DNA of 64,000 bases from Christensenellaceae bacterium. Lineage in GTDB: Bacteria; Bacillota; Clostridia; Christensenellales; Borkfalkiaceae. Shown piece by piece: positions 40,605 to 63,931 of the stretch. A program made the translations under genes and the position numbers. The DNA lies in NCBI GenBank assembly GCA_045578765.1, contig JAZNKV010000016.1, positions 26,796-90,795 of the forward strand, in the 5' to 3' direction. How positions within the stretch are numbered: the first letter of the stretch is position 1; every line of letters starts with the position of its first letter. The notes beneath the pieces are model-generated. The model made no database searches. It was not told the DNA's origin and was given only the letters and a program-made list of their open reading frames with translations.

Positions 40605-40680
40605 GGAAGCATAGCTCAGCTGGGAGAGCATCTGCCTTACAAGCAGAGGGTCATAGGTTCGAGCCCTATTGTTTCCACCA
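40605..40680 (+). tRNA. tRNA-Val (anticodon UAC)
   Basis: Hand-folded cloverleaf. The acceptor is ggaagca/tgtttcc, the anticodon loop is cuUACaa, and the T-loop is ggttcgagcc. CCA is encoded. 76 nt. Confidence 0.93.
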
Positions 40681-40703
40681 AATCGTCATTGCACCATCAT
40701 GGT

Positions 40704-40778
40704 GCGGGAATGGCTCAGTGGTAGAGCGTCGCCTTGCCAAGGCGAATGTCGCGAGTTCGAATCTCGTTTCCCGCTCCA
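40704..40778 (+). tRNA. tRNA-Gly (anticodon GCC)
   Basis: Acceptor gcgggaa/ttcccgc, anticodon loop uuGCCaa, T-loop gttcgaatc. CCA encoded. 75 nt. Confidence 0.93.
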
Positions 40779-40810
40779 TTTTTTTATTTTTAGGAGTTTT
40801 ATTCCTATTC

Positions 40811-40884
40811 GGCGCCATCGCCAAGTGGTAAGGCCCGGGTCTGCAAAACCCTTACCCCCAGTTCGAATCTGGGTGGCGCCTCCA
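40811..40884 (+). tRNA. tRNA-Cys (anticodon GCA)
   Basis: Acceptor ggcgcca/tggcgcc, anticodon loop cuGCAaa, T-arm cccag-ttcgaat-ctggg, discriminator U. CCA encoded. 74 nt. Confidence 0.92.
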
Positions 40885-40886
40885 AA

Positions 40887-40918
40887 AAAACTCCTCGCTA
40901 TTTTTAGCGTGGAGTTTT
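40887..40918 (+). other. hairpin between tRNA-Cys and tRNA-Leu (processing or partial-termination element)
   Basis: aaaactcc-t-cgct (40887-40899) pairs with agcg-t-ggagtttt (40906-40918), 12 bp with one mismatch. It lies 16 nt before tRNA-Leu. Confidence 0.5.
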
Positions 40919-40934
40919 ATTTCTAAATCGCGTC

Positions 40935-41021
40935 GCCGCTGTGGCGGAATAGGCAGACGCAAGGGACTTAAAATCCCTCGGAGTAACATCCGTGCCGGTT
41001 CAAGTCCGGCCAGCGGCACCA
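40935..41021 (+). tRNA. tRNA-Leu (anticodon UAA), class II with a long variable arm
   Basis: Acceptor gccgctg/cagcggc, anticodon loop cuUAAaa, long variable arm, T-loop ggttcaagtcc. CCA encoded. 87 nt. Confidence 0.93.
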
Positions 41022-44486: not shown

Positions 44487-44569
44487 TGGTGCGGATAACA
44501 GGATTTGAACCTGCACGGTCGCCCACTAGAATCTGAATCTAGCGCGTCTGCCAGTTCCGCCATATCCGC
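44487..44569 (-). tRNA. tRNA-Leu (anticodon CAG), class II
   Basis: The reverse complement folds with acceptor gcggata/tatccgc, anticodon stem ctaga/tctag, loop uuCAGau and T-loop ggttcaaatcc. CCA encoded. 83 nt. Coordinates may be off by 1. Confidence 0.9.
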
Positions 44570-58083: not shown

Positions 58084-59598
58084 TTATTTTAAATGTTCTT
58101 TCTTTACAACTTTTAAGCCTTTTCTTTGCGCATAAGTAGTTTTGCGTTCAGGAAGTTTAAACCATGAAATTTTTTCTTTGTCCCTATATAATACCATAAA
58201 CACGGCAAGCAATGCAACTATCACGAAGAAAAGAATTAAAAACCAAGTCGGGAAAGTTTCGCCTTTTACTTTTTCCCACATTTCATTTATATCCAACAAC
58301 GTATCTGGTGCAAAATAACTCATAACAGCGCACCTATTAACAATTTCTTCCGTGGGATATTGCGCAATAAGTCTACCATAAGATTCTTCACTAACGATAA
58401 TTTTATATTCATTGTCATTGCCGAAGAAATAAGATAAATCAACTTCTATCGTTCCTTCTTCAACCTCAGTATATCCTTCGTCAAACCAGCCGGTAACAAC
58501 GGCATCAAAAAGTGATAAGTTTTCAACGATGATACTGCCATCATCTTCTTCAATTTCAACGTCAAACGTATTCCCGCCGGCAATCATGCTAGTGTAGCCG
58601 GTATAATTCATGTTTCTATAAACGTTTTCAGGGCGAGAAATAAACTCTAAGAACTTGTATACGGCTTGGTGGTTATTGCTCCCTGAAGGCATAACAAATC
58701 CATCAAACCAAATATTACTACCTTCATCGGGAACGTAATAACTGAGCGAACGTGTATCCGCCCCATCTAAAACTGTTCCATCTTCATCTTCTGCGTCACC
58801 AGCAGCAACGTCTATCGCATAAGCGGCATCCCCACTCCAAGCGATATATGCGTCGATATTCCCTAGAATAATATCGTTTTTACCGCTATCAACTTCAAAG
58901 CCGTATAGCCTATTTTTAATTGAAGATAGAACTTCGCCAACTTTTTCAATATGTTCAGCGCCTGTTCTATTAAGAATCTCAGTTATCTGTTCATTGGTAG
59001 TTGCATTTTCAAGTTCATCTTTATAAGCCATTGCAAGACCAACCAAATATGAATCTCTAACAGAATCTTTTATCGTTGCCTTTTTGATAAGGGCATCATC
59101 TTCAAAAACGCCACCCCAAGATTGAACAGTTGACTCGTCCACAACGTCAGTGTTGTAAACCCAGCCCATTGTTCCCCACATATATCCTACCATATATTGT
59201 GAAAGGGTTGAGCCGTCATCTAACACTATTCCGTTTAACCTATCCTTGATAAACGGTGAAAGATTATCTTGATAGTTTGCAATTTGGCTAAAGTCAAGCT
59301 TTTGAATTCTGCCTTCCACAGCAAGCTTTTCAATCATATACTCTGACGGAACAACTAAGTCATAGCTGTTGGGGTTTATTACAAGTTCATTATAAAGATT
59401 TTCGTTCGTACCATATGTTGAGTAAATTACTTTTATTCCTGTTTCGTTTTCAAAGTCTTGAAGTAAGGTCTCGTCTATATAATCTTCACAGTTACAAACT
59501 CTCAACACGTTGGTTTGCTCAGTAGATGCGCAGCCAAATGAAAATATCGTTGAAAAAATCATTAACGCAACTAAAATAAGAGATAAAATTCTTTTCAT
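58084..59598 (-). CDS. potD: PotD-like polyamine-binding lipoprotein, enlarged and with an extra C-terminal TM anchor
   Basis: The ATG at 59598 has AAGGAGG 9 nt upstream. It has a lipobox (FSFGCAS), a PotD/PotF-type fold signature (VIYSTYGTNENLY, VVPSEYM), and a C-terminal hydrophobic helix (WFLILFFVIVALLAVFMVLY) plus a basic tail. Confidence 0.78.
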   Translation of the reverse strand: MKRILSLILVALMIFSTIFSFGCASTEQTNVLRVCNCEDYIDETLLQDFENETGIKVIYSTYGTNENLYNELVINPNSYDLVVPSEYMIEKLAVEGRIQKLDFSQIANYQDNLSPFIKDRLNGIVLDDGSTLSQYMVGYMWGTMGWVYNTDVVDESTVQSWGGVFEDDALIKKATIKDSVRDSYLVGLAMAYKDELENATTNEQITEILNRTGAEHIEKVGEVLSSIKNRLYGFEVDSGKNDIILGNIDAYIAWSGDAAYAIDVAAGDAEDEDGTVLDGADTRSLSYYVPDEGSNIWFDGFVMPSGSNNHQAVYKFLEFISRPENVYRNMNYTGYTSMIAGGNTFDVEIEEDDGSIIVENLSLFDAVVTGWFDEGYTEVEEGTIEVDLSYFFGNDNEYKIIVSEESYGRLIAQYPTEEIVNRCAVMSYFAPDTLLDINEMWEKVKGETFPTWFLILFFVIVALLAVFMVLYRDKEKISWFKLPERKTTYAQRKGLKVVKKEHLK

Positions 59599-59599
59599 A

Positions 59600-60400
59600 T
59601 TATTTTGCCTCCTTTTTTCTAGTGCTAACGTTTTTAACAACAACAACCAAAATTATAACTATAAATATAATTGCAGAAAGAGCACGGAGCGCGGGCAGTG
59701 ATGAATTTGCATTCGACTTTGCCATTGCACCATAAACGTATGTTGAAATAGTATCAAAACCAGCAGGTTTAGTGTATGCTGAAATAATATAATCGTCGAG
59801 CGAAAGCGTTATTGCAAGCATAAAACCACTCAAAATTCCTGGCAATATTTCTGGGACAATTACACTAAATAGAGCCCTTGCTGGAGACGCGCCAAGGTCT
59901 AACGCCGCCTCATACAAGTTAGAATCCATTTGTTTTAACTTTGGAATTACTGATAATACCACAAACGGCGTGGTAATAACCAAATGCCCTATTACAAGCG
60001 CAAAATATGAACGACTTTCGGTAAATATAAATGCAAACAATAGTACAAGTGCAACTGCCGTTACAATTTCAGCGTTGATAACGGGAATTCTTGATGCTGC
60101 GGAAACGCCTTTACCAAACTTGCCCTTGCTGTAATAAATACCGATTGCACCAAGTGTACCAAGCACGGTTGCCAATACCGCAACTAACACGGCAAGAATA
60201 AGAGTATCCCAAACGATTTTCATCAAAGCACTATCAGCAAACAATTTTTTATATAATTCTAAAGAAAAACCTTGCTTTATTGCTTCTTGAATATTTACAA
60301 CGGGCGTATCAACAAAGCTGTAAACTACAAGAGTGAATATGGGTGCATAAATAAATAAAAGGATTAATGCAATATAAAATACTTGGAAGAACTTTTTCAT
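59600..60400 (-). CDS. potC: spermidine/putrescine ABC transporter permease PotC
   Basis: 266 aa with six TM helices and an EAA-like loop (YEAALDLGASPARALFSV). Confidence 0.85.
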   Translation of the reverse strand: MKKFFQVFYIALILLFIYAPIFTLVVYSFVDTPVVNIQEAIKQGFSLELYKKLFADSALMKIVWDTLILAVLVAVLATVLGTLGAIGIYYSKGKFGKGVSAASRIPVINAEIVTAVALVLLFAFIFTESRSYFALVIGHLVITTPFVVLSVIPKLKQMDSNLYEAALDLGASPARALFSVIVPEILPGILSGFMLAITLSLDDYIISAYTKPAGFDTISTYVYGAMAKSNANSSLPALRALSAIIFIVIILVVVVKNVSTRKKEAK

Positions 60401-61227
60401 TATATGTTAGTCCCCCTTGCATTATTTTCACTCTTAAAACTACCCGTAACCCACATTGATACAAGCATAATAACAAGTAACACCATAGCCATTGCCGAGC
60501 CGAAATTCCAGTTTTGGAAGGTTGTAAACTGCTCGTCAATAAGTTTGCCGATAATAGTTATTAGCCCGTTGCCAAACGTGTCTGAAATAACGTAACAAGT
60601 CATAGTGGGCATAAACACCATTGTTACACCGCTGGCTATTCCTGACATTGAAAGTGGTAACGTTACTTTTCTAAACGTTGTAAACGCGTTTGCGCCCAAA
60701 TCATTGCTTGCCTCAATCAAACTTTTATCCATTTTAATTAAAACGGTGTAAATTGGCATTATCATAAAAGGCAAATAATCGTAAACCATACCTATAACAA
60801 CGTTTACGTAATTATTAAACCCAAACACGCCTATAAGCGTCAACAAATCTTTCATCGCCATTGCACGAAGAACGAAGTTTATCCACATAGGCATAATAAA
60901 TAGCATGAGTAGCGTTCCGCCCTTGTTTAACTTGCTTTTTGCAAGTATGTACGCAACAGGATATGCAATGATTATACAAATTATCGTTGTTGCAAGCGCG
61001 ATAAGCATACTTATTATTAAGGTCGAAAGTGTAGTTTCACTTGAAAAAAATCTTATAAAATTATCAAACGAAATCACGCCGTTTTTATCCGTAAAAGCAT
61101 GGAACACTATTAGTAGCAACGGAAGAACAACAAATAGCGCCAAAAACAGCCCGTACGGAATACATAATTGTTTTCTAGAAAAGTTCAAACCGAACTTCTT
61201 CTTGTTTAAGGTGTTTTGTTCGGTCAT
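60400..61227 (-). CDS. potB: spermidine/putrescine ABC transporter permease PotB
   Basis: 275 aa with an EAA-like loop (IEASNDLGANAFTTFRKVTLP). It overlaps both neighbours. Confidence 0.85.
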   Translation of the reverse strand: MTEQNTLNKKKFGLNFSRKQLCIPYGLFLALFVVLPLLLIVFHAFTDKNGVISFDNFIRFFSSETTLSTLIISMLIALATTIICIIIAYPVAYILAKSKLNKGGTLLMLFIMPMWINFVLRAMAMKDLLTLIGVFGFNNYVNVVIGMVYDYLPFMIMPIYTVLIKMDKSLIEASNDLGANAFTTFRKVTLPLSMSGIASGVTMVFMPTMTCYVISDTFGNGLITIIGKLIDEQFTTFQNWNFGSAMAMVLLVIMLVSMWVTGSFKSENNARGTNI

Positions 61228-62735
61228 CTTTTAATCTCCTGCTTTAATGAAAGCCTAATCTTTTCTTTAGGAATAATAACGCTAACCCTATCGTTTTCAT
61301 TCCAAGTATCTTCGGTATCAAATACAAAGTCTTCTTCGTTTTCATCAGTTCTAACGATAAGTTGATAGTGGTCACCCTTATAAATCATTGAAACGATATT
61401 ACCTATAGCCCCGCCATCTTCTTCATGGTCACTTATTTCTATATCTTTTAACCCCACTTCAACGTTAACGTCAACGTCGGTAAGGTCGATTTTTTCGCCT
61501 TCTGCCGTGATTAGATATCCGTCTTCATCAAGGAAAGAACCAGGATAAAGTTGCGTAACGTCACACTCAAACTCCCCATCGCCAAAACATACGGTGTTCT
61601 TTTTTGTAATATATCCGTCGTATTTATTAGAAGAAAACTCCTTAGCCATAATGTGAATATCGCTCGGCTTTATAAACAAGCTTACCTTTTCACCAACTTT
61701 TCTTTCAATGGTATCTTGAATAACAATTTCTGTTTTACCAACAAGCATAACCATTTCGTAGTGAACGCCCTTAAATATTGAGCTAATAATTTTTCCGTTT
61801 ACTTGCCCTTTGCCTTCGTCCATCAAGAACACGTCTTCAGGGCGAACAACAACGTCAACTTTTTCGTTCTTATCAAACACGTCAACACATTCAAAAACAT
61901 GGTTTATAAACCTAACCTTATTATCGCCGGCATAAGTTCCGCTAAAAATATTACTTTCGCCTATAAAGTCTGCAACGAAAGAGTTTTTGGGTTCGTTATA
62001 AATGTCGGTAGGCGTGCCTACTTGTTGAATCACACCGTCTTTCATTACAACGATTGTATCACTCATTGTAAGCGCTTCTTCTTGGTCGTGCGTAACGTAA
62101 ATAAATGTAATACCAAGTTTTTTATGCATTTCTTTAAGTTCTAACTGCATATCTTTACGCATCTTTAAGTCAAGTGCGCCAAGCGGTTCATCTAAAAGCA
62201 AAATTTCAGGCTCGTTAACTATTGCCCTTGCAATAGCAACACGTTGTTGTTGACCGCCTGAGAGCGTGGAAACACTGCGCTTTTCAAAACCTTCAAGGTC
62301 AACCATTTTAAGCGCTTTTTCAACCTTTTCTATAATTTCTTTCTTAGGCAATTTCTCAATTCTTTTAAACTGCTTGCCTTTTTTGTCTTCATACGTTACT
62401 TCAACTCTTTTAAGTTTAAGCCCGAAAGCAATGTTATCGTACACGTTCAAATGTGGAAACAAAGCGTATCTTTGGAATACGGTATTTATAGGGCGTTTAT
62501 TGGGTGGCAAAAGGCTTATGTCTTGACCGTTAAGCAAAATTTTACCAGAAGTGGGTTTGTCAAATCCCGCGATCATACGTAAGGTCGTTGTTTTGCCACA
62601 ACCCGACGGCCCTAAAAATGTGATAAATTCACCCTTTCTAACGTATAGATTAACCTTGTCAACGGCAACCATACCGTCATCAAATTCACGGGTTAAATCA
62701 ATAAGTTCAATAATTTTTTCGCTTTTGTTTGTCAT
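61224..62735 (-). CDS. potA: spermidine/putrescine import ATPase PotA with a ~130-aa C-terminal extension
   Basis: Walker A GPSGCGKTT, signature LSGGQQQR, Walker B LLLDEPLGALD. A TOBE-like segment is followed by a second TOBE-like segment (GNIVSMIYKGDHYQLIV...RVSVIIPKEKIRL). 503 aa. Confidence 0.88.
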   Translation of the reverse strand: MTNKSEKIIELIDLTREFDDGMVAVDKVNLYVRKGEFITFLGPSGCGKTTTLRMIAGFDKPTSGKILLNGQDISLLPPNKRPINTVFQRYALFPHLNVYDNIAFGLKLKRVEVTYEDKKGKQFKRIEKLPKKEIIEKVEKALKMVDLEGFEKRSVSTLSGGQQQRVAIARAIVNEPEILLLDEPLGALDLKMRKDMQLELKEMHKKLGITFIYVTHDQEEALTMSDTIVVMKDGVIQQVGTPTDIYNEPKNSFVADFIGESNIFSGTYAGDNKVRFINHVFECVDVFDKNEKVDVVVRPEDVFLMDEGKGQVNGKIISSIFKGVHYEMVMLVGKTEIVIQDTIERKVGEKVSLFIKPSDIHIMAKEFSSNKYDGYITKKNTVCFGDGEFECDVTQLYPGSFLDEDGYLITAEGEKIDLTDVDVNVEVGLKDIEISDHEEDGGAIGNIVSMIYKGDHYQLIVRTDENEEDFVFDTEDTWNENDRVSVIIPKEKIRLSLKQEIKR

Positions 62736-62770
62736 AACAATACCTCATAAGATAGATTTTGACTTGCTTT

Positions 62771-62801
62771 AAAATAAAAAAAGCAAGTTAACCTAACTTG
62801 C
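62771..62801 (-). terminator. intrinsic terminator (attenuator candidate) inside the potA leader
   Basis: Minus-strand RNA reads gcaaguua-ggu-uaacuugc (8 bp, 62801-62783), followed by UUUUUUUAUUUU (62782-71). It lies about 25 nt upstream of the potA SD (GAGG 62746-62743). Confidence 0.6.
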
Positions 62802-62871
62802 AAAACAAATACCCTAAAATAAATATAATGACAAACACCTTTGCCGTTACAAAAAAAGGATAATGGGTAAT

Positions 62872-63092
62872 CAGAGTCTATATAGCAACAAAACTTTTAC
62901 TACTCTTTATTGACCGTTTCACAAGTCTGCGAATTTCGCATTTTCGGTTATAAAGTAACCAACTTATAAACTTTGAGCACAATGCTCAATCAATAAGGCG
63001 AATACTCGCCACTCGGCAGTGGACCCGGCTGTCCGTATGGCCTCAACTCTTCATCGCTAAAGAGTGGTCCTTTATCGCTTGGAAAGACTCTG
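62872..63092 (-). promoter_or_regulatory. unclassified structured 5' leader RNA element of the potABCD operon
   Basis: This is a non-coding, locally GC-rich element. It has three tandem hairpins (62973-62989, 62946-62960, 62928-62940) enclosed by a 9-bp helix (62988-62996 with 62907-62915). An 8-bp bracket helix (63085-63092 with 62872-62879) spans the whole element. G-U pairs favour the minus strand. Confidence 0.5.
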
Positions 63093-63118
63093 TTTACTAA
63101 ACTCACTTTCCGTTTTAT

Positions 63119-63147
63119 ATATTAAAACATTTGCTTTGTTTTGTCAA
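63119..63147 (-). promoter_or_regulatory. near-consensus sigma-A promoter driving the potA leader
   Basis: On the minus strand: TTGACA (63147-63142), 17-nt spacer, TAATAT (63124-63119). Confidence 0.55.
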
Positions 63148-63258
63148 TCATTTTTTATTATTAAATAAAAAAATATAGCCTTTTCTTGTCTGTTTTGTTT
63201 GCTAATTACGTCTTTGTTTTTGTATAATATATCTACAAAAACTTTTTAGGAGTAGAGA

Positions 63259-63870
63259 TTGGATTTTTTTATTCAAGCAATTGGTTTTATAGGCATTGCG
63301 CTAATAATAATTTCAGTGCAGTTTAACGTGCATTGGAAGATTATGCTCTTTAGAACGCTTGGCTCTATTACCTTTGTTATTCAATATATCTTTTTGGGCG
63401 CGTGGGTAGGTATGGTTATGGACCTTATTGGTTGCATAAGAAACATTGTGTTTACCTATAACGTTAGAAAAAAACGAGAAAATATCTTTTGGATTTGGTT
63501 TTTTTCTATAGTTACAATTATTTGTGGCGTTACAACAATTATTATGACGTGGGATAAATGTATTGGTTACGTATCACACTGGTCTAGTGACCAAAACGTT
63601 GTTTTGATTTTAGCTGTTTCCGTTAGTATAATTTCTATTTTTGCAAAGCTTATTACAACTATCGCTTACGGATTTAAAAATCCACATATTATTCGAAGAT
63701 TAAATATTCCATCAAGTGTATGCTGGGTAGTTTATAACGTTCTTGCCTTTTCTATTGCGGGTATTGTAAGCGATTTGATGAGTTTAATTTCAACGATAAT
63801 TGCTGAAATCCGTTACACAGGAAAACCTTCACTTGAAAATAAATCAAAACAAAACAACGAACATAATTAA
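63259..63870 (+). CDS. YgjV-like inner membrane protein
   Basis: 203 aa with about 6 TM helices. The FIQAIGFIGIAL...QYIFLGAWVG pattern is like the Imp-YgjV family (from memory). The TTG start is preceded by AGGAG. Confidence 0.65.
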   Translation: MDFFIQAIGFIGIALIIISVQFNVHWKIMLFRTLGSITFVIQYIFLGAWVGMVMDLIGCIRNIVFTYNVRKKRENIFWIWFFSIVTIICGVTTIIMTWDKCIGYVSHWSSDQNVVLILAVSVSIISIFAKLITTIAYGFKNPHIIRRLNIPSSVCWVVYNVLAFSIAGIVSDLMSLISTIIAEIRYTGKPSLENKSKQNNEHN

Positions 63871-63897: not shown

Positions 63898-63930
63898 AAA
63901 AAAGCACCCTTGAGGGTGCTTTAATTTTTT
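63898..63930. terminator. bidirectional terminator
   Basis: aaagcaccc (63901-63909) pairs with gggtgcttt (63914-63922), a 9-bp stem flanked by A and T runs. Confidence 0.8.
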
Positions 63931-63931
63931 C

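Follow-up and report, generated by a model that had tools for sequence, protein, structure and literature searches.

A potABCD leader RNA of the ldcC/SpF59 family in a Christensenellaceae bacterium: a probable polyamine-responsive attenuator within a conserved unit larger than the catalogued motif

The closest described relative of the RNA studied here is the ldcC motif, which Weinberg et al. 2017 (PMC5737381) reported to be widespread in Firmicutes as a bulged hairpin with a possible invariant pseudoknot. It was found in the 5′ untranslated regions (UTRs) of arginine, ornithine and S-adenosylmethionine (SAM) decarboxylase genes and of PotA, and a role in polyamine homeostasis was proposed, independently of the present analysis. 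No report of a ligand or mechanism for ldcC RNA was found in the literature searched. A second related system is the spermidine riboswitch, a variant of SAM-I validated in 2023 with a representative from Trichococcus ilyis (Salvail et al. 2023, PMC10853860). It too is found in Bacillota upstream of polyamine biosynthesis genes (its ldcC, speE and speB), and it acts as an OFF switch through an intrinsic terminator and antiterminator, the same logic that we propose below. It is, however, a different RNA, with a four-way SAM-I fold, few representatives (13 in that paper) and a demonstrated ligand. Spermidine-dependent termination at Borrelia potB (PMC10319736) and a transcription study of potABCD in S. 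agalactiae (PMC8744998) were considered as parallels and set aside, since each concerns another element and has no bearing on the ldcC leader.

Our studies concern the leader that precedes a potABCD operon on the minus strand of a 64,000-nt stretch of Christensenellaceae bacterium DNA (contig JAZNKV010000016.1), hereafter the window. The presence of a structured regulatory leader before potABCD is confirmed, and this copy is unremarkable within an orphan family already known, in a gene context that has been reported before. What is new lies at the level of the family: a unit of about 230 nt with a co-varying antiterminator and terminator, and a constant part that can occur without the catalogued motif. 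We consider it probable that the potABCD leader is a cis-acting attenuation RNA of the ldcC/SpF59 family that works as a polyamine-responsive OFF switch, most likely a riboswitch.

The family assignment comes from an Rfam 15 scan, in which 63070-63013 (minus strand) matched RF02440 (SpF59/ldcC RNA) over its full length, model positions 1-54 of 54. The match scored 69.6 bits against a gathering score of 37.2, with E = 1.8e-10 for the whole window and 2e-12 locally. Every invariant nucleotide of the alignment is present save one A-to-G change just before the core. The bulged hairpin of ldcC, with its invariant AAGGCCAUACGGACAGCCGGGUC bulge and UGCCGA tail, is therefore found here in the 5′ UTR of a polyamine-related gene (potA of potABCD) in a Firmicute, or Bacillota-type, genome.

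63013..63070, minus strand: ldcC/SpF59 module and RF02440 match, with P2a (63070-63066/63025-63021), P2b (63065-63060/63051-63046), bulge AGGCCAUACGGACAGCCGGGUC and tail ACUGCCGA

A first-pass annotation of this DNA had called the leader unclassified, and had named a significant Rfam hit as the result that would remove its novelty; the scan that it proposed returned RF02440. The GC-rich stretch that it had flagged (62997-63057, 62.3% G+C against 36.6% in the leader and 36.1% in the window) is this match, and the ACUCUU/AAGAGU pairing is the inner helix of the ldcC motif. Its view that no polyamine-sensing riboswitch class exists in Firmicutes is outdated by the spermidine riboswitch of 2023 (PMC10853860), different as that RNA is. 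A SAM-I (RF00162) match was absent both from 62600-63300 at E <= 10 and, at the gathering threshold, from the window.

Comparison with the leaders of relatives, which the first-pass annotation had also suggested, revealed shared blocks at fixed offsets and covarying helices. Genome loci were collected by looking for exact copies of the 22-nt core in contigs from a one-genome-per-species set, which gave at least 120 loci, all in Bacillota; the matches listed come from Oscillospiraceae, Lachnospiraceae, Christensenellaceae, Paenibacillus, Bacillaceae and Acidaminococcus. Metagenome loci obtained with the 3′ block GGUCAAUAAGAGUAGUAAAAGU (L121-L240) bring the comparison set to 240 loci overall. 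The next gene usually starts 150-450 nt from the core (286 nt in the window), so a long spacer is the rule for the ldcC family. Further conserved blocks were first seen in the potA leaders and then in all four groups of downstream genes described below; they occur in nearly all of the 120 genome loci listed, at near-fixed offsets from the core start:

offset -48: AGAGUCUUUCC, in about half of the loci
offset +47: CUUAUUGAUUG
offset +79: AAGUUGGUUAC
offset +117: ACUUGUGAAA
offset +128: GGUCAAUAAGAGUAG
offset +161: UAUAGACUCU

The hairpins between these blocks vary in sequence with pairing kept. What is conserved is a closed RNA that spans about 230 nt (63097-62867) and is made up of P1a/P1b, the ldcC arm P2 and P3-P8. 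Thus, whereas ldcC is catalogued as a single bulged hairpin with a possible pseudoknot, that hairpin is here one arm of a multi-helix RNA; the Rfam model covers about a quarter of the unit, whose true extent is about four times that of the model.

Since the variable hairpins spoiled a plain MAFFT alignment of the full set of loci, the analysis used standard-spacing loci and then covariance-model alignment. Alignment A1 (MAFFT) holds 61 diverse standard-spacing loci, and the model was scored on it without P1b. From A1 and the written structure we built covariance model R1 (244 positions, 63 pairs), which in turn aligned 85 distinct metagenome sequences outside the seed (alignment A2). R1 recovered 99 of 100 metagenome loci outside the seed. 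Block searches and R1 both indicated a single copy of the element in the window, and neither found a second.

62869..63110, minus strand: whole leader element, R1 match at 222.5 bits (E = 1.8e-59; next best match in the window 8.9 bits), a score that holds by construction, as the window sequence is in the seed alignment

The closest locus listed, L031, is from a Christensenellaceae metagenome-assembled genome whose PotA is 88% identical. Its leader is 84% identical to that of the window from the promoter to the end of P1a, and similarity then falls below detection in the linker, a pattern that fits selection on the element itself.

The helices and joining strand of the unit, apart from the P2 arm given above, are located in the window as follows:

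63085..63097 (core 63092-63085), minus strand: P1a 5′ strand GUAAaCAGAGUCU, pairs with 62879-62867
62867..62879, minus strand: P1a 3′ strand AGACUCUGaUUAC, supported by an alignment-free test and A2
63071..63079, minus strand: P1b 5′ strand AGCGAUAAA, pairs with 62892-62884
62884..62892, minus strand: P1b 3′ strand UUUGUUGCU, supported by covariation and an own-versus-non-own partner test
62997..63010, minus strand: P3 hairpin GGCGA-GUAU-UCGCC, all 5 pairs covary
62988..62996, minus strand: P4 5′ strand UUAUUGAUU, pairs with GGUCAAUAA at 62915-62907
62907..62915, minus strand: P4 3′ strand GGUCAAUAA, on the same evidence as its 5′ strand
62975..62987, minus strand: P5 hairpin GAGCA-UUG-UGCUC, covaries (GAGUU/AGCUC, GCGUU/AGCGC, GAGAU/AUCUC)
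62962..62970, minus strand: P6 5′ strand UUUAUAAGU, pairs with ACUUGUGAA at 62926-62918
62946..62960, minus strand: P7 hairpin GGUUA-CUUUA-UAACC, sequence very highly conserved, 88-89% of cells paired
62928..62940, minus strand: P8 variable hairpin UGCGA-AAU-UCGCA, all 5 pairs covary
62893..62906, minus strand: conserved joining strand AGAGUAGUAAAAGU from P4 to P1b, nearly invariant columns in A1

The structure as a whole is supported by both alignments. On A1, 89.2% of cells are paired, compared with 33-47% when the partners are slid by 1-3 columns, and 22 pairs show two-sided change (200 such cells, against 73 +/- 10 in shuffles). On A2 the paired fraction is 93.1% (34-44% in slid controls), with 29 pairs showing double-sided change against 15.5 +/- 1.8 in shuffles and 288 cells against 90 +/- 10; the covarying helices are P1b, P2a, P2b, P3, P5 and P8. 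P2a and P2b both covary in the family. Folded without constraints, the terminated window transcript has a minimum free energy structure of -96.5 kcal/mol that consists of the comparative model and the terminator, and the folding energy of the leader was better than that of 100 out of 100 shuffles (z = -3.75).

Several of these helices had been proposed in the first-pass annotation and held up in the family. Its 8-bp long-range helix (63092-63085/62879-62872) is P1a, which in the window extends to 63097/62867 with one A.A mismatch. In an alignment-free test, 32 of 99 loci, against 6 of 99 in the reversed set, had at least 8 contiguous P1a pairs. Covariation is seen in the extensions (for example AUUAGAGUCU/AGACUCUGAU, CUUAGAGUCU/AGACUCUGAG and GCAUAGAGUUU/AGACUCUGUGC), and on A2, where the outer pair is CG/GC/UG/UA, 77.8% of cells are paired; the figure on the MAFFT columns of A1 is only 58.7%, since the upstream flank is misaligned there. 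P1b is paired in 91.7% and 94.7% of cells in two scorings and in at most 62% when slid. Its innermost aligned pair covaries (AU/UA/GU/UG/GC; AU 26, UA 17, UG 5, GC 3), and a crude own-versus-non-own partner test on its variable extension gave p = 1.8e-7. The 9-bp helix 62996-62988/62915-62907 is P4, invariant in the family apart from rare changes that keep pairing (UG to UA or CG), and like P6 it holds two conserved U.G pairs. P6 itself is essentially invariant, with 99.7-99.8% of cells paired and changes of UG to UA or CG, AU to GU and AU to GC. The three hairpins are P5 (62987-62975), P7 (62960-62946) and P8 (62940-62928); P5 and P8 covary, and P7 is conserved with no clear covariation, being the weakest helix of all (one compensatory case on A1, none on A2). 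The functional core probably includes the joining strand 62893-62906. Another local candidate, hairpin P9 (GUAGU 62903-62899/GCUAU 62886-62882), is 96% pairable; it shows no covariation and overlaps the covarying P1b, and it was left out of the model, although it could represent an alternative state. As a separate observation, Oscillospiraceae potA leaders (L034, L042, L057, L061, L074, L076 and L110) carry a conserved UCUCAAUUGGGA right after the promoter that is complementary to CCCAUUG(G/A)GAU just past the P1 3′ strand. Those leaders may thus possess an additional outer helix, P0, which is absent from the window.

The constancy of the core might also be explained by coding. On this alternative it would encode a short leader peptide (...RPYGQPGPLP..., in the window part of a GTG open reading frame (ORF) at 63106-62990), and ribosome stalling would control termination. 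The frame is open through the window core, the peptide is rich in proline and glycine, and polyamine-sensing arrest peptides are found in other bacteria, with speFL mentioned in PMC10319736. Across 111 loci, however, no frame is consistently open; a start codon is in frame in 68 and ATG in 31, the distance to the stop codon varies out of frame, and the core is invariant at all three codon positions. The GTG has no Shine-Dalgarno sequence, and the flanking helices covary as RNA. Consistent with the first-pass annotation, the only candidates in the leader are this 38-aa GTG ORF and a 34-aa TTG ORF, both without a Shine-Dalgarno sequence, and no frame is conserved across loci. With no conserved frame or start codon in the 111 loci, the RPYGQPG frame is effectively refuted, and we give the leader peptide almost no chance of being correct.

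As all genome loci had been ascertained through the core, a core-independent scan of metagenome contigs was made with the 3′ block GGUCAAUAAGAGUAGUAAAAGU, which gave 109 testable loci. The core lay within 260 nt upstream in 95 of these (69 exact, 26 with small variants). Eleven loci, about 10%, have no ldcC arm and nevertheless carry the complete P1a/P1b/P3-P8 domain and the promoter. P1b directly adjoins P3 in six of them (L129, L170, L182, L184, L186, L196), as in the example at L182:3285-3469 (minus strand). A plain hairpin replaces the arm in L224 and L239; L132 and L152 likewise have no ldcC arm, and L227 is a diverged copy. The other loci without a core are L177 (core 272 nt upstream, past a large insertion), L176 (a fragment) and L218 (whole upstream part gone). 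Downstream of the 11 arm-less loci we found nine Orn/Arg/Lys-decarboxylase or speD genes, one short unassigned ORF and, in one case, no ORF in reach. These loci score 121-148 bits with R1, and they have no Rfam 15 match at gathering thresholds (for L182, none at E <= 1). For this reason we conclude that the catalogued 54-nt ldcC motif is a facultative arm inserted at the junction, and that neither Rfam 15 nor the literature searched contains the constant part of the RNA (P1a/b, P3-P8 and the joining strands). The fragment in L176, near 2989 as oriented, is an isolated 3′ part (GGUCAAUAAGAGUAGUAAAAGU...UUGCUAUAUAAGACC) in or beside coding sequence upstream of a CTP-synthase-like gene; without the rest of the element, it is possibly a decayed remnant.

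Within the arm, the nucleotides of the proposed ldcC pseudoknot are invariant, as described in PMC5737381, with a coupled change in the bulge in only two metagenome loci. In these loci, with core variants AGGCUCCACGGACGGCCGGGUC and AGGCUACACGGACGGCCGGGUC, GGCC to GGCU is coupled with ACAG to ACGG in the otherwise "invariant" bulge, an isosteric C.A to U.G swap. This hints at an internal GGCC/AGCC hairpin in the bulge that is not drawn in the Rfam structure.

Downstream of the unit, a terminator scan confirmed the 8-bp hairpin and U7 tract that had been noted ahead of potA (hairpin energy -7.0 kcal/mol), and homologous GCAAGU... terminators were found at other loci. The parts of the expression platform are as follows:

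62776..62801, minus strand: intrinsic terminator GCAAGUUA-GGU-UAACUUGC, hairpin 62801-62783 and U7 62782-62776, from the scan
62916..62927, minus strand: switch strand GACUUGUGAAAC, the P6 3′ strand when folded or the antiterminator 5′ strand with 62806-62795
62795..62806, minus strand: antiterminator 3′ strand GUUUUGCAAGUU, overlapping the terminator 5′ arm
62807..62866, minus strand: poorly conserved U-rich linker from element to terminator, window-L031 similarity stopping at the P1 end

The terminator 5′ arm can pair with the P6/P8 3′ strands and changes in step with the P8 arm of its own locus, and it is this complementarity together with the co-variation that identifies the pairing as an antiterminator. 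In the window, GACUUGUGAAAC and GUUUUGCAAGUU (62927-62916/62806-62795) form 12 bp at -14.0 kcal/mol. When the antiterminator is imposed on the fold, the energy is -93.0 instead of -96.5 kcal/mol, a cost of about 3 kcal/mol. Across loci, CA[AG]G is present in 32 of 43 terminator 5′ arms but in only 4 of 43 reversed arms. In an unbiased duplex search, the best partner of the arm was, at 18 of 38 loci and in 4 of 38 controls, the ACUUGUG block with the 3′ arm of P8 next to it. Duplexes within a locus were also stronger than those with the partner of another locus, both for the variable 12 nt alone (-6.46 vs -5.13 kcal/mol, Wilcoxon p = 0.002) and with the conserved block included (-11.31 vs -9.22 kcal/mol, p = 1.6e-7). 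The conserved competition lies between P6/P8 and the terminator 5′ arm, and not in the ACUCUU-based switch that had been proposed. There, the pairing of ACUCUU(U) at 63065-63059 with 63051-63046 stands as P2b, which covaries, but the alternative with 62908-62902, present in the window, is not conserved. It was rejected as a switch, as P2b differs from locus to locus and AAGAGU does not.

Two further features of the terminator region were observed. A second GCAAGU, at 62767-62762, is present as reported and is absent from the closest listed relative, L031; it is probably specific to the window. With the preceding AAA, it forms AAAGCAAGU (62770-62762), which pairs over 9 bp with ACUUGCUUU (62788-62780; -9.3 kcal/mol), that is, with the terminator 3′ arm and the first U residues, and this pairing could stabilise the read-through mRNA. 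In the Bacilli loci L014, L017, L027, L041 and L045, a linker of 150-250 nt separates P1 from the terminator and is itself conserved and structured. An early UGAUAUAUU...AAUAUU pairs there with AAUAUU...AUAUCA just ahead of the terminator, and extra hairpin-plus-GCUUUUU elements resemble additional tandem terminators.

The leader must have its own promoter, since an opposite-strand gene and a two-way terminator separate it from the upstream minus-strand gene. The gene between them encodes a YgjV-like membrane protein (plus strand, 63259-63870). The terminator, a perfect 9-bp GC-rich hairpin at 63901-63922 with T-runs on both strands, sits between the end of the minus-strand gene (stop near 63931) and that of the YgjV-like gene, and it insulates the potA leader promoter from upstream transcription.

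63119..63147, minus strand: sigma-70-type promoter from a consensus scan, -35 TTGACA (63147-63142), 17-nt spacer, -10 TAATAT (63124-63119)

The promoter is present as the first-pass annotation read it, with 10 of 12 consensus matches, and places the predicted transcription start near 63112. A lone match of this kind is not above chance (7 such sites against 5.7 expected in the region). In related loci, however, a promoter of at least 10/12 occurs at the same place in 86 of 115, against 9 of 115 reversed controls, and the core begins a median of 75 nt past the end of the -10 hexamer, just as in the window.

The genes that follow the element form a coherent regulon. Among the 240 loci, where only the gene immediately downstream was classified, 197 of 203 assignable genes belong to four classes of polyamine supply: 96 pyridoxal-phosphate-dependent Orn/Arg/Lys decarboxylases, 43 SAM decarboxylases, 38 PotA and 20 saccharopine-dehydrogenase-like proteins of the carboxyspermidine dehydrogenase type. 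The other six comprise three C39-like peptidases, an amidohydrolase-like gene, a fragment (L176) and a mis-called ORF (L239). No exporter or catabolic gene was found among the 203. The three peptidases (L147, L208 and L215) are secreted papain/C39-like cysteine peptidases of about 290 aa, which fits the association of the ldcC motif with "endopeptidase C39A" mentioned in PMC5737381.

This arrangement also bears on the possibility that the terminated leader, of about 340 nt, is a functional trans-acting small RNA (sRNA), its place before potA being secondary. Rfam gives the family the type "Gene; sRNA" and a name taken from the Streptococcus SpF59 transcript, and since the leader has a promoter and a terminator to itself, it should build up as a short, discrete transcript. 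An attenuator, though, would also yield such a transcript. The element is always on the same strand and directly upstream of one of few polyamine gene classes, and the co-varying complementarity that ties the terminator arm to the element is a signature of cis control. We therefore regard a primarily trans-acting role as very unlikely.

Based upon these observations, we predict the following mechanism for the attenuator. Transcription would start near 63112 from the sigma-70 promoter, and the first ~245 nt would fold into a closed multi-helix domain in which P1a and P1b close a junction with three arms: P2 (the ldcC module), P3 and the long arm P4[P5, P6[P7, P8]]. In the OFF state, the full fold would lock GACUUGUGAAAC (62927-62916) in P6, and the hairpin 62801-62783 with U7 would form and terminate transcription before potA. 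In the ON state, with the domain unstabilised, GACUUGUGAAAC would pair with GUUUUGCAAGUU (62806-62795) and use up the terminator 5′ arm, allowing read-through into potABCD. Because the folded element lets the terminator form, the signal should stabilise the fold, and the leader should act as an OFF switch. Every downstream class raises the cellular polyamine level, and repression by a polyamine end product is thus a coherent logic. Since the same RNA precedes all of these genes, the stabilising signal is most likely a polyamine end product such as spermidine, which would most likely be bound by the RNA itself, making the leader a riboswitch. Of the features expected of a riboswitch, the leader has a conserved structured aptamer domain with covariation support and, computationally, an expression platform whose mutually exclusive structures are tied to the aptamer. 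In this respect the first-pass interpretation stands for the structured cis-regulatory leader with its own promoter, aptamer-like domain, terminator, exclusive pairings and logical polyamine signal; it does not stand for the unclassified status, the lack of a Firmicute class or the ACUCUU switch.

The same RNA and switch might instead have their signal read by a trans-acting factor, such as a polyamine-dependent RNA-binding protein or other macromolecule, as in attenuators of the PyrR, TRAP or LicT type. In PyrR, TRAP and LicT/RAT attenuators, a stabilised upstream structure decides between antiterminator and terminator, and the ldcC leader is similar in this regard. Many invariant nucleotides are unpaired in our model (AGGCCAUACGGACAGCCGGG, AAGAGUAGUAAAAGU and the UUCC/AUAU internal loop), and such stretches are no less a mark of ligand pockets and tertiary contacts. 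About 10% of loci do without the ldcC arm, as might be the case for an add-on module that binds protein or serves for docking, and the literature searched holds no ligand published since the motif was described in 2017. On the other side, no recurrent regulator gene was noticed beside the loci, where the gene immediately downstream was classified and neighbourhoods were not systematically surveyed. The element also spans Bacilli, Clostridia and Negativicutes almost unchanged, as large metabolite aptamers do. The binding sites of PyrR, TRAP and LicT/RAT are short, about 30-60 nt, with known protein partners, and the ldcC element is far larger. The large aptamers of riboswitches such as those for cobalamin also exceed 200 nt and combine a constant core and a facultative peripheral arm with a terminator platform, but have no sequence or Rfam similarity to the ldcC leader. 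On balance, we consider a trans-acting sensor unlikely, if clearly better placed than the sRNA explanation.

Several points weigh against a riboswitch acting through this platform. The simple finder saw a clean terminator between element and gene in only 60 of 100 loci, and the others needed inspection by eye; those in Bacilli that escaped it carry terminators of this type with a bulge (AGCAAGUGAUG...CACUUGCU-U7). The partner of the antiterminator lies about 110 nt upstream of the terminator, inside the domain and not at the P1 3′ end, an uncommon arrangement among riboswitches. Because the sequences share ancestry, independence is overstated in the shuffle and own-versus-non-own statistics, and the pair counts on A2 lean towards the model structure to which that alignment was fitted. 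P4 and P7 are without real covariation. The long, very highly conserved and apparently unpaired stretches also fit recognition by a protein or other macromolecule. Finally, the literature searched contained no binding, termination or expression experiment on ldcC RNA.

A bolder proposal, which we advance only tentatively, is that the true sensor is the ~230-nt RNA formed by P1a/b, the junction, P3-P8 with their conserved U.G pairs and the joining strands. It would represent a widespread, dedicated class of polyamine riboswitch that governs the whole Bacillota supply regulon by transcription termination, with the ldcC arm as a dispensable tertiary or accessory module; the motif may have stayed an orphan because only its 54-nt side-arm was catalogued. 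The search for a common RNA that senses polyamines in Gram-positive bacteria is an old one, and the only class validated so far is a rare SAM-I variant. As the present element precedes polyamine synthesis and uptake genes in a large share of gut Clostridia and soil Bacilli, it is the obvious candidate. Assays of the orphan ldcC RNA are best aimed at the ~230-nt domain and not at the 54-nt hairpin.

The leader extends for ~377 nt up to the potA ATG (62735), a length confirmed on the minus-strand reading, and the identity of the operon follows from its Pfam domains (ABC_tran and TOBE_2 in potA, BPD_transp_1 twice, and SBP_bac_8).

62743..62746, minus strand: potA Shine-Dalgarno GAGG, 7 nt ahead of the ATG at 62735, read from the sequence
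58084..62735, minus strand: regulated operon potABCD, from the ORF list and Pfam
62735-61224, minus strand: potA, from the ORF list
61227-60400, minus strand: potB, from the ORF list
60400-59600, minus strand: potC, from the ORF list
59646-58084, minus strand: potD, from the ORF list

Two of the encoded proteins have unusual extensions. PotA (61224-62735, 503 aa) carries an acidic extension of ~130 aa past the TOBE domain, which it has in common with the protein at L070. PotD (58084-59646) is unusually long at 520 aa: it bears a lipoprotein-like signal at the N terminus and, at the C terminus, a hydrophobic segment with a basic tail behind it. The potD and potC ORFs overlap by 47 nt. Elsewhere in the window and unrelated to the leader, the Rfam scan identified a cluster of four tRNAs on the plus strand (40605-41018) and one more tRNA on the minus strand (44490-44569).

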